A stretch of 28,645 bases of DNA from the IMG/VR virus record IMGVR_UViG_3300048857_000044, positions 1 through 28,645 of that record; one strand, given 5' to 3'. Source of the stretch: a virus. Its lineage: Duplodnaviria; Caudoviricetes. Below the pieces are notes generated by a model. It was not told the DNA's origin. It saw only the letters and a list, made by a program, of their open reading frames with translations, and searched no databases. Shown piece by piece: positions 3,601-8,537 of this stretch; position 1 is the first letter of the stretch, and each line of letters opens with the position of its first letter. The position numbers and the translations under genes are program-made.

Positions 3601-3615
3601 GTTCCCCCTTCGTTC
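3601..3615 (+). promoter_or_regulatory. Alphaproteobacterial LexA (SOS) box
   Basis: GTTC-CCCCTTC-GTTC (GTTC-N7-GTTC), 12 bp upstream of ATG 3628. Confidence 0.75.
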
Positions 3616-3627
3616 ACGGAGCGGAGC

Positions 3628-3978
3628 ATGCCCAAGACCTACGATCGGACCTTCCAGCTCAGGCACTACCCACTCCCGAAGCTTGTCGTGGAGTGCATCA
3701 AGTGCGGGCGCAAGAGCAGGTTCGACAAAGCACAGCTGATCGAGAAGCTGGGGGAGACCTACCCAGTGCACCAGGCGAAAGACCGCCTGACAGAGAACTG
3801 GGAGTGCACCAAATCAGACGCCATGCCGGCCTGTGCCCTGCACCCGAGAGCCATGTACTGCCTCCCCTATCTGCCGGAATGGCAGGATCGGGTGAACCAG
3901 TTCTTCCTTGATATGAAGTATGGCCGGAACCCAGAGGCACTTTATGCCGAGCCACAAGCAAAAGCCCCGCCGGCCTGA
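3628..3978 (+). CDS. Cys-rich (CxxC) hypothetical protein, predicted SOS-inducible
   Basis: GGAG RBS, VECIKCGR motif plus further Cys residues; LexA box upstream. Confidence 0.7.
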   Translation: MPKTYDRTFQLRHYPLPKLVVECIKCGRKSRFDKAQLIEKLGETYPVHQAKDRLTENWECTKSDAMPACALHPRAMYCLPYLPEWQDRVNQFFLDMKYGRNPEALYAEPQAKAPPA

Positions 3979-4072: not shown

Positions 4073-4507
4073 CTAAGATCGAGTGGCCAGTGTCTTGATA
4101 ATCGCATCCCCAATCGTCTCAAGGCGGGTGCTGATCTGCTCCAGCCGATCGACAATCCTATCCATGCCCTGGTTGGTGCGCCGCTCAAGCTCCTGCATCT
4201 CGTGCTTGGTGGCGTATTGCTTGGCAACCTCCTCCCGGAACTCAGCGTGGTGGCCTCGCATGGCGGTTACTCCTGCATTGATGGCGACCTGAAACGCTTC
4301 CCGCTCCTTGCGATCCAGTTCCCGTTCGGCCTCTCGGTTCTGTTTAAACGTATTCAGGCGCTCTTCGATACGCTTGATGTCACTAGCCGCGGACTTGATT
4401 TCCTGAGTTTTGCTGCCGAGGCTGAACACCCATCCAACAAACCCGACGATAGCCAGCGACCCGGTGATGAGGGTCGCCGGCGAGATAACAGGGCTCCATT
4501 CAAGCAT
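4073..4507 (-). CDS. Lysis-cassette membrane protein (N-terminal TM plus coiled coil)
   Basis: Directly after the holin; one TM helix then a charged helical region. Confidence 0.7.
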   Translation of the reverse strand: MLEWSPVISPATLITGSLAIVGFVGWVFSLGSKTQEIKSAASDIKRIEERLNTFKQNREAERELDRKEREAFQVAINAGVTAMRGHHAEFREEVAKQYATKHEMQELERRTNQGMDRIVDRLEQISTRLETIGDAIIKTLATRS

Positions 4508-4520
4508 TCGATCAGCCTCT

Positions 4521-4796
4521 CTAGAGCGACCGCGCGACGATCTTCTCGCTCGCTGTCTTCAAGGCTGTCTTGGGATCGGCAATGATCTGCTGAACGTTCG
4601 GAACGGCCGCCGCCGCCTCGACCAGGCCTGTATTGCGACGGGCCCAAAGCCCCCAGACCGTCACGCCGATGGTGAGGATGGCTGCGATTAGCGTCTCCAT
4701 CTGAGCGCCGGTCATGTAGCCGTTCGTCACGACGGAAGCGCCGACGATCTGAAGGAGCGTGCGGACAAGCGAAAGGATCTGCTCTTGATTGAACAT
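4521..4796 (-). CDS. Putative phage holin
   Basis: 91 aa, two TM helices, basic WARR after TM2, directly after the endolysin. Confidence 0.75.
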   Translation of the reverse strand: MFNQEQILSLVRTLLQIVGASVVTNGYMTGAQMETLIAAILTIGVTVWGLWARRNTGLVEAAAAVPNVQQIIADPKTALKTASEKIVARSL

Positions 4797-4828
4797 GGGG
4801 GTAGGCTTCGTTTGTAGCGGGTTAGTGT

Positions 4829-5368
4829 TCAGGCGGCTTTCTTGAGAGTGGCAGCCGCGGCCATCTTAAGGGCTTCCTTCTCGACGCCCTGGACGCGAGC
4901 CATCCAGCCTTTGCCGAAGGTCTTCCAAGTGCTGAGGCGGGTGAGAAAGGATAGCCGGTCGGTGCACAGGCGCTTGATCAGCACCTGAGGGTCAGTGTTG
5001 CGGACCGCCTTAAGGGTGATTGGACCGATCTTGCCGTCATCCGCCACACCCACGGCGCGCTGCAAGGCCATGACGGATCGCTGAACGCCAGAGTTCACGG
5101 CGAAATCGAACACGGCATAGTCGACGCCGGCCGGGAGGCTGTCGGCCCTACAGGCGTCCCAGTAGTTCTTGCGGTAGATCGAGGCCACAGTGGCAGGCTT
5201 CAGGGCCTTCACCTCTGCCTTGGTCGCCCTCCGGCCCAGCCAGCCGCTTAGGGTGCCAATGGTCACGCCCAGGTTCGTGGCACCGCCAGGATCCTTGGGG
5301 TGATCCACATAGCCGCCTTCGTGTTTGAGGACGAGCGATAAGGCTCTCCCGAACGTATCGGTAGACAT
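4829..5368 (-). CDS. Endolysin, glycoside hydrolase family 108 with PG-binding domain
   Basis: HEGGYVDHPKDPGGATNLGVT, FDFAVNSG and FGKGW motifs; GGAG RBS favours ATG at 5368 (MSTDTFG). Confidence 0.93.
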   Translation of the reverse strand: MSTDTFGRALSLVLKHEGGYVDHPKDPGGATNLGVTIGTLSGWLGRRATKAEVKALKPATVASIYRKNYWDACRADSLPAGVDYAVFDFAVNSGVQRSVMALQRAVGVADDGKIGPITLKAVRNTDPQVLIKRLCTDRLSFLTRLSTWKTFGKGWMARVQGVEKEALKMAAAATLKKAA

Positions 5369-5380
5369 TGATTTCTCCAT

Positions 5381-5406
5381 GAAAAAAGGCGCTCAGAAGA
5401 GCGCCC
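5381..5406 (-). terminator. Rho-independent terminator closing the TnpB cassette
   Basis: GGGCGCTC-TTCT-GAGCGCCT followed by a T run. Confidence 0.85.
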
Positions 5407-5437
5407 TTACGGTTATGGCCTTGCGTTTGACGACTGG

Positions 5438-5530
5438 CCCGAATGTCTCGGTGGTGGCTGCTCCCGGCCCTTTAGCGCTGGGCTCCTTCTGCAAGCGTGT
5501 CCAGCCCGACACGGAGAATGTTCTTCGCGG
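5438..5530 (-). ncRNA. Predicted TnpB omega/reRNA, 3' part (5' end uncertain), with 16-nt guide CACCGAGACATTCGGG at 5453-5438
   Basis: IS605-type right-end-like sequence CTTGCAGAAGGA...GGGAGCAGCCAC overlaps the tnpB 3' end; the guide is taken as the sequence just after it. Confidence 0.65.
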
Positions 5531-6515
5531 CATTCACGTCTCTGTCGTGGACAGTTCCGCAATCGTCGCAAGTCCAGTCCCTTACTCCAAGCCCTGCGAT
5601 ACCTCTCGGCCTCGACGGCGGAAGACATCCGCATGTCGAACAGGTTTGGGTACTCATAGCCTCAGAGGCTTCAACAACACGCCCACCATGCCTAACGGCC
5701 TTGTATGAGAGCATCTGCTTGAAGCCCGCCCATCCGGCGTCGTTCACCGACTTCGCCATTCGGGTCTTGGCCAGCCTTGACGGGCTCACATCGCCTACGA
5801 CGATAGTCCCGTATCCCTTAACCACCGCATTAGCGGACTTGTGCAGGAAATCCTTGCGACGGTTCCGAGCCTTCGCGTGGATCGTACGCACGCGCTTCGA
5901 CTTGCGGGCCCGCTGTGCTGTTGAGAGAGCCTCCTCACTCGCACGATAGAAACGCGGCATTTCAATCTTTTGGCCATTTGACAGCGTAGCGAGTGTCTTT
6001 AGGCCAAGATCAATCCCAACTGCGTTTGAATAGTTCGGCTCCTGCAGCTCGACCTCAACCGGGACGTTGATGTACCAGTGGCCCTTCGCGTCAGCGTTGA
6101 ACGATCCTGCACCAAATGTCATTCCTGGGGTCAGAACGTCCCGCAGGTGCATCGCCTCGTAGCGCACGCCCCGAAATACGAGCACCTCACCGTCGAAGCG
6201 TACATGCCCTGTGTTGAAGGGCACCCACCCAAGAGACTTCCGGCTGCGCCAGCGCAACCAAGGCTTTTTCTGTGTCTTGCGAGAGTCATCGTAGGCGCGG
6301 CACACGCGCTGGATGGTGTGAGCGTGGATATCGAGTTCCTTGCCCGCCCCTGCGGTGAGCCGCATGAGGTCGTAGACGCTCAACCACCTACGATGGGCCG
6401 AGGCGGCTTTCTTCTGGATCTCATTACAGTAGTTCCAGACAAAGTTGACCGCCCGCGCCTGCCTACTGAGTTCAGCTGCGTGCTTGTCGCGAAGGCGCAA
6501 CTTGACGGTGATCAT
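5472..6515 (-). CDS. tnpB: RNA-guided endonuclease TnpB (IS200/IS605 OrfB family), no tnpA; start may be GTG 6542
   Basis: VNFVWNYCN, RuvC-I VGIDLGLK, AKSVNDAGW, zinc finger CSTC...CDDC, RuvC-III HDRDVNAA. Confidence 0.93.
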   Translation of the reverse strand: MITVKLRLRDKHAAELSRQARAVNFVWNYCNEIQKKAASAHRRWLSVYDLMRLTAGAGKELDIHAHTIQRVCRAYDDSRKTQKKPWLRWRSRKSLGWVPFNTGHVRFDGEVLVFRGVRYEAMHLRDVLTPGMTFGAGSFNADAKGHWYINVPVEVELQEPNYSNAVGIDLGLKTLATLSNGQKIEMPRFYRASEEALSTAQRARKSKRVRTIHAKARNRRKDFLHKSANAVVKGYGTIVVGDVSPSRLAKTRMAKSVNDAGWAGFKQMLSYKAVRHGGRVVEASEAMSTQTCSTCGCLPPSRPRGIAGLGVRDWTCDDCGTVHDRDVNAAKNILRVGLDTLAEGAQR

Positions 6516-6611
6516 CTGCTTTGGGACAACAGCATCAGCCACTCGGCGCGGTTCCCTCGCGTCATTGGTTATGGCCGGATCCGGTGTTAGCAGCACTGCT
6601 CTGGCCCGCCG

Positions 6612-6639
6612 AGTATACGAACATCTCAAGAACATTCAA
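6612..6639 (-). promoter_or_regulatory. Sigma70-type promoter of tnpB with a LexA box in the spacer
   Basis: TTGAAT (6639-6634)-N16-TATACT (6617-6612); GTTC-TTGAGAT-GTTC at 6633-6619. Confidence 0.8.
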
Positions 6640-6648
6640 GCTGATCTG

Positions 6649-6672
6649 TGTCTCGGTGGTCATGATGTCCTC
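6649..6672 (-). pseudogene. Remnant of the original endolysin start (RBS plus MTTET)
   Basis: GAGGA-CATC-ATG ACC ACC GAG ACA, 26 bp after the preceding tail gene; parallels MSTDT of the resident endolysin. Confidence 0.7.
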
Positions 6673-6689
6673 GTGATGTGGGAATGATG

Positions 6690-7139
6690 TTAGGCGGGCA
6701 GCGTTGCAGCGTGCTCCATCAGGTCAGTTAGTTGCTCGTCGCTAATGCCAACGATGGCAGCCAGCATCGGCACGAACACTCCATCACGGTCAAAATCATC
6801 ACGGTCAAAATCCGTGCCACGCTCCAGAGCCTCTTCGGCAGATGCTCTCTTCAAGGGATCGCTCAGACTTGCGATCGCCGCTTGGACAGCCTGGAATAGC
6901 GTTCCCTCTTCCCACTGAGTCACCTTCATAATCGTGCGCGCTCGCCACATCGCAACAGTGCGCACTTGAGGCGGAGGCGGCGAAATGTAGGGTTCGGGTA
7001 TGTTCCCCTCTGAAACCCACGCGTCGTAGATTGCGCGGAGGCCCACGTCTATCGGCGGGATTGGCCCAAAGTAATGCGCGCTATCAATCGAGAGAACCCC
7101 TTGACCATCTGCTGAAGTAAGACAGGCCGAAACGTTCAT
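6690..7139 (-). CDS. Tail fibre-associated/assembly protein
   Basis: Follows the tail fibre; YDAWVSEGNIPEPY XkdW-like motif; contains a 15-bp tandem duplication. Confidence 0.65.
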   Translation of the reverse strand: MNVSACLTSADGQGVLSIDSAHYFGPIPPIDVGLRAIYDAWVSEGNIPEPYISPPPPQVRTVAMWRARTIMKVTQWEEGTLFQAVQAAIASLSDPLKRASAEEALERGTDFDRDDFDRDGVFVPMLAAIVGISDEQLTDLMEHAATLPA

Positions 7140-7142
7140 AGT

Positions 7143-8537
7143 TTACAGCTCCACAGTTGCTTCCCATGTCCCACGCCCAACAAGCAGGCCCGATGCTCCT
7201 GCGGTTGCCACATAGCGACAGCCCTCAAGAGTCACATCATCAATAGAGACAGCGGAAATGTTCGTGCTTTGCGATGCGGCAATGACAGCGACTTGAGGCG
7301 CTGCCCGCTTAGTGGCTTTGTAGGTAATCGTCTGGATGACATAGCCACCGGAGACAGGAGGGTACCCGAGCACGCTCAGCACCCCCCGTTCATAATAGCG
7401 CTGGCAAAGCCTCAGCTCATCCCGCTCAACGATCAGGGCCGGATTGCTGCCGCGCCCGGCGCGAGGCCATCTGAAAGTCACACCGCTTCCAGAGAAGGTC
7501 ACCCAAATGTTGCCTGTCGCCCCTGCACCGAGAAGGAGTGTGGCAGAGCGGATGCCGGGCCCAGCTGTGATCGTGCCGGATTGCCCCCCGGCCGTGACTG
7601 CCAGGTTGCCCCCGGTTAAATCATTGACAGCGACCGTGAGCGTGCCGTTGGCGAAAGTCTCTTTGGTGAGAAAGCCGATCTCGACGATCTGCTCGATAGA
7701 ACCAGACGTCAGCGTCCAAGTTCCGTTCGAGACACTGATGTTGGCTCCGCCTGCTCCGGCCTTCCAGCGGTCTCGGACAAACGCACCGGCGGCATTAGCG
7801 CCGTTGGCGGTATTGCGCTGGTTAATGTCGCCGAAGGAATTGATCAACAGGTTGCTGCCGAGTAGGCCTGTACCAGCCGTTAGGATTGAATAAACCTGTC
7901 CCGGCGTCAGATCTTCCGGATCGCCCGCCCCCGCCGAAATGCGCCCCTTGATCCTTGCAGCCGCCATATCGGCTAGTTTGGCGTTGGTGACGCCATTGTC
8001 GGGAAGGATGGCGGATGATGCAGCCTCTGCCCACTGCTGGGCGATGCCGGCCTGATGAGTGGCCGCCGTTGCGGCACCTTGTGCGGTCCCAGCCGCATTT
8101 TGCGCCACCTGTCGATCCGCATCTACCTCCGTCTGGATCTGGGCGAGCAGCGTCATGGCTGCCTCGACCGCCACTCGATCAGCGTGGATCTCGTCAGCCA
8201 CCTCATCGAGGTTTTCAGGGAGAGCCTTCAGCCGTGCCAGGTACTCCGATACGCGGACAGCATAGAAGCGGGGGTCGATGTGATTGGCGAACCGCAGCGC
8301 GAAATACGGGACATCGGTCAGCGTCGGCCCCGTCCAGGGCTTGGCAAGTCGGATCTGGTTGACCGTCAACACCTCCTTGATGACCGTCGCGCCTGCGGTT
8401 CCGTCGTTCGGGAACACGAAGTCGAAGGGCAACAGCGCCGGATCCCAGGCGACCATCTCACCCGTCGCAATGTCCGAGCCGTTGGTCAGAGTGATCGTGC
8501 CGTCTGAATAGAAGAAGTAGGAAGGATCAAGAGCCAT
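7143..8537 (-). CDS. Tail fibre/receptor-binding protein
   Basis: N-terminal GTITLTNGS anchor, Ala-rich coiled coil, VTNAKLA, INQR...DRW and ELRLCQRYYE fibre motifs. Confidence 0.85.
   Translation of the reverse strand: MALDPSYFFYSDGTITLTNGSDIATGEMVAWDPALLPFDFVFPNDGTAGATVIKEVLTVNQIRLAKPWTGPTLTDVPYFALRFANHIDPRFYAVRVSEYLARLKALPENLDEVADEIHADRVAVEAAMTLLAQIQTEVDADRQVAQNAAGTAQGAATAATHQAGIAQQWAEAASSAILPDNGVTNAKLADMAAARIKGRISAGAGDPEDLTPGQVYSILTAGTGLLGSNLLINSFGDINQRNTANGANAAGAFVRDRWKAGAGGANISVSNGTWTLTSGSIEQIVEIGFLTKETFANGTLTVAVNDLTGGNLAVTAGGQSGTITAGPGIRSATLLLGAGATGNIWVTFSGSGVTFRWPRAGRGSNPALIVERDELRLCQRYYERGVLSVLGYPPVSGGYVIQTITYKATKRAAPQVAVIAASQSTNISAVSIDDVTLEGCRYVATAGASGLLVGRGTWEATVEL

Follow-up and report, generated by a model that had tools for sequence, protein, structure and literature searches.

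What is an intact tnpB gene, with no transposase gene in the same record, doing in the start of a phage endolysin gene? The gene lies in a provirus record of 28.6 kb (IMGVR_UViG_3300048857_000044; 28,645 nt, 64% complete; hereafter the window), in which terminase, portal, ClpP, capsid, tape measure and tail genes are followed on the minus strand by tnpB and the genes of a GH108 endolysin and a holin. The explanation we favor, with a probability of about 0.6, is that tnpB belongs to an RNA-guided, intronless homing cassette that has captured a resistant endolysin start, its cutting and spread being predictions from sequence. The locus has every element that cut-and-replace homing requires: the nuclease gene is intact, the guide is fixed, its targets are real, the self allele is mismatched, and a homology arm lies on each side. 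The TnpB of the window probably cuts related phages at endolysin starts of the MTTETFG type. Every coordinate in a preliminary description of the locus proved correct on the minus strand when rechecked; the parts are as follows.

6690..7139, minus strand: last gene of the tail region, 149 aa (called as an open reading frame, ORF); putative left homology arm.
6649..6672, minus strand: orphan endolysin start, with the ribosome-binding site (RBS) GAGGA at 6672-6668, an ATG opening MTTET at 6663-6649, the target-adjacent motif (TAM) TGAC at 6662-6659 and the first 10 nt of the protospacer as a remnant at 6658-6649.
6612..6639, minus strand: sigma-70-like promoter TTGAAT-16-TATACT with a LexA-type box in its spacer.
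5472..6542, minus strand: tnpB, with its likely start at GTG 6542; the alternative ATG 6515 gives 347 aa.
5454..5640, minus strand: putative omegaRNA scaffold overlapping the 3' end of tnpB, from an alignment with 7 relatives.
5462-5454, minus strand: right-end motif, AGCAGCCAC.
5437..5453, minus strand: predicted guide, 17 nt, the first 16 nt of which (5453-5438) are CACCGAGACATTCGG.
5369..5436, minus strand: foreign spacer, intrinsic-terminator hairpin (5406-5382) and RBS of the resident endolysin (5378-5375).
4829..5368, minus strand: resident GH108 endolysin (Pfam PF05838/PF09374), with its MSTDTFG start at 5368-5348; putative right homology arm.
4521..4796, minus strand: holin (Pfam PF23987).

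The orphan ATG, led by its RBS, lies 26 bp past the stop of the tail gene (6690), and joining it to the endolysin body had been proposed to rebuild an empty allele carrying a TAM and a 16-nt guide match. Such alleles exist in related phages. Starts were inspected at the 18 best of 80 endolysin loci; at four of these (L003, L012, L016, L017) MTTETFG is encoded with TGAC and an exact match to a guide of 17 nt, and a fifth (L014) has one mismatch. The orphan RBS and start are identical to those of the empty alleles L016, L017, L091 and L095. The guide (5453-5437) is identical to the empty endolysin start after TGAC and the endolysin match stops beyond 17 nt, such that the proposed match is exact and its length is 17 rather than 16 nt. 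Among 120 endolysin homologs, eight begin with MTTETFG and two with MATDTFG, while MSTDTFG is present only in the window's own protein. Cassette-free MTTETFG alleles had been predicted, and this comparison, set in advance as one that could overturn the idea, came out in its favor.

A wider search with a 19-nt string of the window recovered 13 loci in the viral collection, all 13 with TGAC (the search pattern fixed AC and left TG free). With up to one mismatch, the string was found in 10 of the 76 genomes of the genus of G001 (Microvirga), with none for the reversed control, and in 0 of the 146 genomes of the genus of G340. This result points to Microvirga as the probable host genus. One of the 76 genomes (G849, unpublished) has no target match and enters only the denominators and the count of 215 loci given below. 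Pooling all targets gave 31 rows and 22 distinct loci, with AC fixed by the pattern in 25 rows. TGAC is present at 21 of the 22 distinct loci, the exception (L396, with CCAC) looking like a chance match, and 14 combine TGAC with a perfect 17-mer. Eight of the 22 are intact GH108 starts, six of them perfect.

The protein that would use this guide is predicted to be a cutting enzyme. It matches Pfam PF07282/PF01385, and ISDra2 TnpB and Fanzor2 are among its best sequence and fold matches (AlphaFold model with a mean predicted local distance difference test score, pLDDT, of 76, poor at residues 243-260). Its frame is free of frameshifts and stops, and D169, G241, E285, D326 and the cysteines of the C4 zinc finger are invariant in 34 of 34 aligned homologs. 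Against four relatives, the ratio of nonsynonymous to synonymous substitution rates (dN/dS) is about 0.14-0.18, a value that reflects past selection with dS near saturation; by this measure, tnpB has been under purifying selection. The RuvC site is rearranged, with the RuvC-II glutamate replaced by glycine (G241) and an alternative glutamate (E285) 44 residues on. The replaced glutamate raises a different possibility, namely a TldR-like protein that only binds the endolysin start of rival prophages and blocks the lysis gene. The target does consist of the first codons of a gene, and the TldR study is said to describe TldRs in prophages. Yet the alternative glutamate and both aspartates are invariant, and rearranged TnpBs of this type cut (PMC10530073); a bind-only repressor is the least probable of the explanations that we weighed.

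The D-G-E-D arrangement is that of RIIr-5, or TnpB2 (PMC10691335), and is shared with TvTnpB of Thermoplasma volcanium, which has the RuvC-II glycine and an alternative glutamate about 45 residues on (PMC10530073, PMC10691335). TvTnpB cuts at 21-22 nt with a measured TAM of NTGAC, compared to the TGAC deduced here (PMC10530073). The likeness between the two proteins lies in the RuvC arrangement and the TAM, and TvTnpB, unlike the window protein, sits in a TnpA-bearing IS605 element with a left end (LE) and a right end (RE). Within the clade of the window, members that resemble insertion sequences (IS) and retain end hairpins join TGAA, TGAC or TGAG to the guide (L001, L180, L255, L342, L348, L350), often within a start codon. 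Their junctions thus provide the TAM independently of the window and, together with the TvTnpB measurement, agree with the TGAC-like TAM first proposed. The right end in the window finishes in CCAC rather than TGAC, and therefore the guide locus is itself no target.

The cassette had been described as free of TnpA, and we likewise found no Y1 transposase gene (tnpA) in the window record, nor Y1_Tnp in 18 records or genomes with close elements, three of which are whole genomes. The majority of tnpB genes lack a nearby tnpA (10.1101/2023.03.14.532601), so its absence is by itself ordinary. Both the LE and RE hairpins of TnpA substrates are missing from the window, where the same pattern detects them in IS-like relatives; the right-end hairpin is kept in L001, L098, L180, L342, L348 and L350. 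Other close members have no end hairpins. For close reading, we used 30 rows besides the window at 50-74% identity, from which a locus without tnpB (L336), eight duplicates and two 5'-truncated rows were dropped, leaving 19 elements and the window. A single origin of the hairpin-less forms, which would have implied retargeting without TnpA, was considered and rejected, as hairpin-less and IS-like forms interleave in the tree (20 close rows and 8 outgroup rows, with 8 of 25 inner branches open). From this interleaving it follows that TnpA acting in trans probably still selects new sites, the ends eroding afterwards.

The same observations could be read as the decay of an IS1341-type element of the ordinary, non-autonomous sort, which TnpA would have moved in trans and whose repeats would be incidental. 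The commonness of tnpB without tnpA and the repeated loss of ends after insertion that the interleaved tree implies are both in keeping with such an element. What it fits poorly is the locus as it stands: both TnpA hairpins are missing, the frame has neither frameshift nor stop at a dN/dS of about 0.15, and the left-hand repeat of 10 nt of the target, a kind of repeat enriched in the clade, is unlike IS605, for which PMC13565253 describes insertion without target duplication. We therefore consider simple decay improbable.

The left repeat itself is one of the more distinctive features of the clade. In the window, TGAC and then 10 nt of protospacer stand to the left of tnpB, and thus the insertion is not directly 3' of the TAM; that the first 10 nt of the guide should recur by chance in the 215 nt ahead of tnpB has a probability of about 2.5e-4. 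Left repeats were scored in the 18 elements with a recognizable right end (L176 and L354 had none), using an end pattern chosen after the sequences had been viewed. A repeat of the guide start of 6-11 nt lies within 200 nt upstream of tnpB in 10 of the 18, compared to 1 of 51 distant canonical elements and 23 of 306 cross-locus pairs (p about 1e-6). Across these alignments the left repeat is a clade trait, with the repeat of L180 probably a chance occurrence. None exceeds 11 nt. In ISDge10 TnpB, a 10-nt guide match is bound without cutting, and cutting is lost from 14 nt down (PMC13507860); longer left repeats would therefore be self-targets. TnpB cuts 15-21 nt from the TAM (PMC8612924), and one-sided repair after such a cut would leave repeats of this kind.

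The detached guide and the second start are found only in the window; in the other 17 close elements, the guide is the flank and runs into the native gene. Here, 30 foreign bases separate the guide from the terminator hairpin, which shows up in the fold with its U-run (5406-5382) but not in the output of the terminator scan. Folding of 5380-5640 gives a structure no better than those of shuffled sequences (z -0.84), and there is no Rfam match at E<=1 within 4500-7500. On the minus strand, an open stretch of 46 codons (5393-5533) crosses the right end in frame with the old endolysin (GAATTETFG); it may be what is left of a former rescue of the gene from that end.

The resident start had been reported to differ from the target at one TAM base and at guide positions 1, 7 and 10. 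These differences are present (the TAM base is -2), and a further one at guide position 17 brings the total to 5 of 21 positions. With three mismatches within the first 10 guide positions, the self allele is predicted to resist cutting. It had further been suggested that the start was recoded under pressure from TnpB, giving immunity, and this suggestion was not supported. The resident endolysin is 90% identical to L003, which has an MTTETFG start, and the divergence of 5/21 at the target site fits the gene-wide level of 15.8% (p=0.23); MATDTFG occurs in 2 of 120 homologs and orphan starts are common without TnpB. Over the first 31 nt, 10 positions differ (p=0.018), but low GC content at third codon positions (GC3) is general at gene starts in the window phage. 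The region of the terminator and RBS agrees at 36 of 39 nt with the leader of L090, whose endolysin is targetable, and this makes a captured foreign allele and a recoded one equally likely as the source of the resistant start. The sole viral match for a TnpB-free phage with the resident start (L356) turned out to be unrelated DNA, and no TnpB-free locus of the resident-start type came up when the MATDTFG protein P0123 was the query.

Cassette and target-type sequences are found together in soil. The window stretch is present, as contigs only, in four soil runs (X1-X4) of four studies, of which X1 may be the source, and no RNA run is listed among the runs holding it. Pieces of the cassette are in all four, and a target-type continuation at 6649 is seen in X1, X3 and X4. 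X2 covers 4810-5694 without a difference, along with the left junction, and also contains a short joined empty form. A contig of 1026 nt in X3 runs from 6649 straight on to 5353, leaving out 1295 nt. Its tail arm shows 3 differences and a gap of 15 nt, and its 124 nt of endolysin show 18 differences; unless it is an assembly chimera, which is possible, it would be the predicted empty sister allele. In X4, the pieces of tnpB show 0-1 differences and those of the endolysin, similar in depth, about 94% identity, a pattern that gives a weak hint of a crossover, the contigs being unlinked. Occupied and putative empty forms occur in the same run, on short contigs and in one lineage. A tandem duplication of 15 nt in the tail gene (6782-6811, DFDRD twice) is missing from the X3 and X4 contigs and is a possible haplotype marker.

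Upstream of tnpB, a scan for sigma-70-like promoters found 1 site against 0.4 expected, and a LexA-type box, GTTC-N7-GTTC, fills its spacer at 6633-6619. This is the alphaproteobacterial LexA box (PMC8565304), which here would time TnpB to prophage induction. With 2 such boxes in the window against 0.85 expected, a count reached in 21 of 100 shuffles and so not beyond chance, the position between -35 and -10 is the sole argument for its role. The second box (3601-3615, plus strand) lies directly ahead of an ORF of 116 aa (3628-3978) that has Cys-rich motifs but matches no Pfam family. Only 9 nt separate the end of the TGAC+10 remnant from the -35, and the remnant, a predicted bind-but-not-cut site, could serve in self-repression.

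Several of these observations weigh against homing, and some would be expected if the arrangement were a by-product of safe landing, in which the element inserted in a pre-existing orphan start ahead of a divergent endolysin, so that match and mismatch arose automatically with little or no homing. Thirteen of the 22 target loci are TnpB-free and consist of orphan starts or fusions to other lysins. These break at +17 to +34 from TGAC, one of them (L084) at +17 as in the window. At these loci (L083-L087, L094, L095, L387, L389, L391, L394, L395, L398), the endolysin RBS and the first 6-13 codons survive as a relic or are fused to an unrelated lysin; judging from them, the endolysin start is a hot spot of lysis-module exchange. 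A general origin of such starts as scars of the window nuclease was rejected, since a near-full target is kept at all 13 breaks, 9 of which are farther out than +22. TnpB is absent from all 215 other lysin or target loci, close TnpBs were found in 0 of the 76 genomes of the Microvirga genus, and the cassette is known from one phage lineage with four near-identical metagenome holders. The target site shows no excess divergence and MATDTFG alleles exist; the other 17 close elements keep the guide as flank; 6 of the 10 left repeats have no TGA[ACG] before them; a perfect LexA box is unique to the window element (0 of 29 other close-clade rows); and the X3 join could have been assembled through a 34-nt RBS-plus-start node common to many phages.

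Safe landing accounts for the origin of the cassette but not for its upkeep, since the frame and catalytic residues are intact and tnpB has its own promoter. With targets present in the same samples, cutting and homing would still be expected of an active enzyme, and the X3 contig, if real, places an intact targetable endolysin behind the same tail gene. We thus judge landing without homing to be unlikely, at roughly one chance in five, and retain the homing cassette as the best explanation. Its origin may have been an IS1341-type insertion at an ATGAC start, which lost its ends and captured a foreign terminator, RBS and endolysin start. The promoter with the LexA box would fire on SOS induction, and the omegaRNA would be trimmed to a guide of about 16-17 nt, with which TnpB would cut a phage resident in, or infecting, the same cell, 15-22 nt from TGAC. 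Repair from the donor through the tail-gene and endolysin arms would then swap in the cassette and the resistant start, or the cut rival would be lost, while the TGAC+10-nt remnant, bound and not cut, would damp the promoter.

Among the nearest known systems is the IS1341 group, with the TnpB-omegaRNA of ISDra2 and ISGst (PMC8612924; 10.1101/2023.03.14.532601). The two have in common the TnpB fold, a right-end RNA over the 3' end of the gene, a guide directly after the right end, a TAM at the left flank and an end motif unlike the TAM. The window element is tnpB-only, as in that group, but lacks three of its defining features, the LE and RE hairpins, the TAM-adjacent insertion without duplication and the native-flank guide. 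Instead, it has a 10-nt target repeat at the left, a guide severed from its flank after 17 nt and followed by a foreign terminator, and a second, mismatched gene start; target and self are thereby told apart not just by the insertion but by substitutions too. Free-standing phage homing endonucleases (T4 Seg/Mob, with intronless homing and marker exclusion; PMC13565253 sections 3.2, 6.1) likewise lie beside a conserved gene whose allele in relatives is the target, distinguish self by substitutions and carry flanking DNA along. The window shares the target in the homologous neighboring gene of relatives and the substituted self allele (5/21), while recognition by RNA would be its own feature; a table in PMC13565253 sets intronless homing apart from the plus- and minus-transposon modes that it gives for TnpB.

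In the mobile ORFs (mORFs) of fungal mitochondria that bring a foreign gene end (Allomyces atp6, Glomus; PMC3630166, PMC10448857), a foreign piece replaces a native one that is left behind. The window has both the foreign replacement and a native piece matching relatives; in contrast to mORFs, the piece is a gene start with a terminator and RBS, the host is a phage, the left-behind piece is the guide template and the nuclease is not of the LAGLIDADG or GIY-YIG type. The cassette would work like a homing endonuclease or an mORF, but is a member of neither. Two TnpB derivatives are also relevant: TldR, which reportedly has an internal guide, and the IStron, which is said to have a means of sparing the interrupted gene. 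The window differs from the former in keeping the RuvC residues D169, E285 and D326, and from the latter in having no group I intron or other Rfam match in 4500-7500.

Alignment scans of genomes, viruses and metagenomes for relatives of the window TnpB (3, 11 and 2 of 64 parts, respectively) returned mostly distant TnpBs among the matches listed, and no relative of at least 60% identity was found among annotated phages (11 records) or plasmids (16 records). Close TnpBs occur in 1/401, 1/401, 0/76 and 3/146 genomes of four genome sets. Within the close clade, the right end of L002, L349, L351, L096 and L334 supplies an in-frame ATG by which the interrupted gene would be restored, and in L002, L334 and L340 tnpB uses the start of the target gene itself; either would be a splice-free route to a harmless insertion. 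Past tnpB, L340 has the right-end motif twice, 50 nt apart and each followed by a different possible guide, as in a two-guide mini-array. In L096, from a Sphingomonas genome, tnpB lies inside an open frame of 595 aa fused to an upstream phage ORF. A leader motif, GGTGC...AACACC...GGCCCTAACC-like hairpin, precedes tnpB in the window (6611-6543), L001 and L180 and follows the guide in L347; it has no Rfam match, and its consensus base at 6572 is present in X2-X4. A separate D-G-E-D group at 42-48% identity (L123, L165, L212, L213, L215, L217, L218, L290, L292, L293, L295) has a different right end, finishing in GGCGGCATGA(A/G)CACCG.

TnpB is known as an enzyme that returns a transposon to its empty site or spreads it there, and displacement of empty plasmids that is driven by TnpB and independent of TnpA has already been described (PMC11870625; PMC13565253 section 6.1). 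A literature search, with most subscription papers and all supplements outside it, returned no phage TnpB with a detached guide and a resistant spare allele. More broadly, and only as a tentative proposal that we would put at somewhat less than even odds, phages may host a class of transposase-free, RNA-guided homing endonucleases: SOS-fired, cut-and-replace gene drives with a fossil gene start as fixed guide, a resistant spare start and a 10-nt self-throttling decoy, the 6-11-nt repeats of the clade being scars of TnpB repair capped by self-cleavage. If homing is the correct explanation, TnpB here does the job of protein homing endonucleases, cutting a rival allele that differs by substitutions and bringing in a resistant one, with RNA as its guide and no transposase. 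The cassette would be a compact 1.3-kb model with named natural targets, and it would show how a transposon nuclease can gain a fixed guide independent of its flank, a step towards TldR and Cas12.

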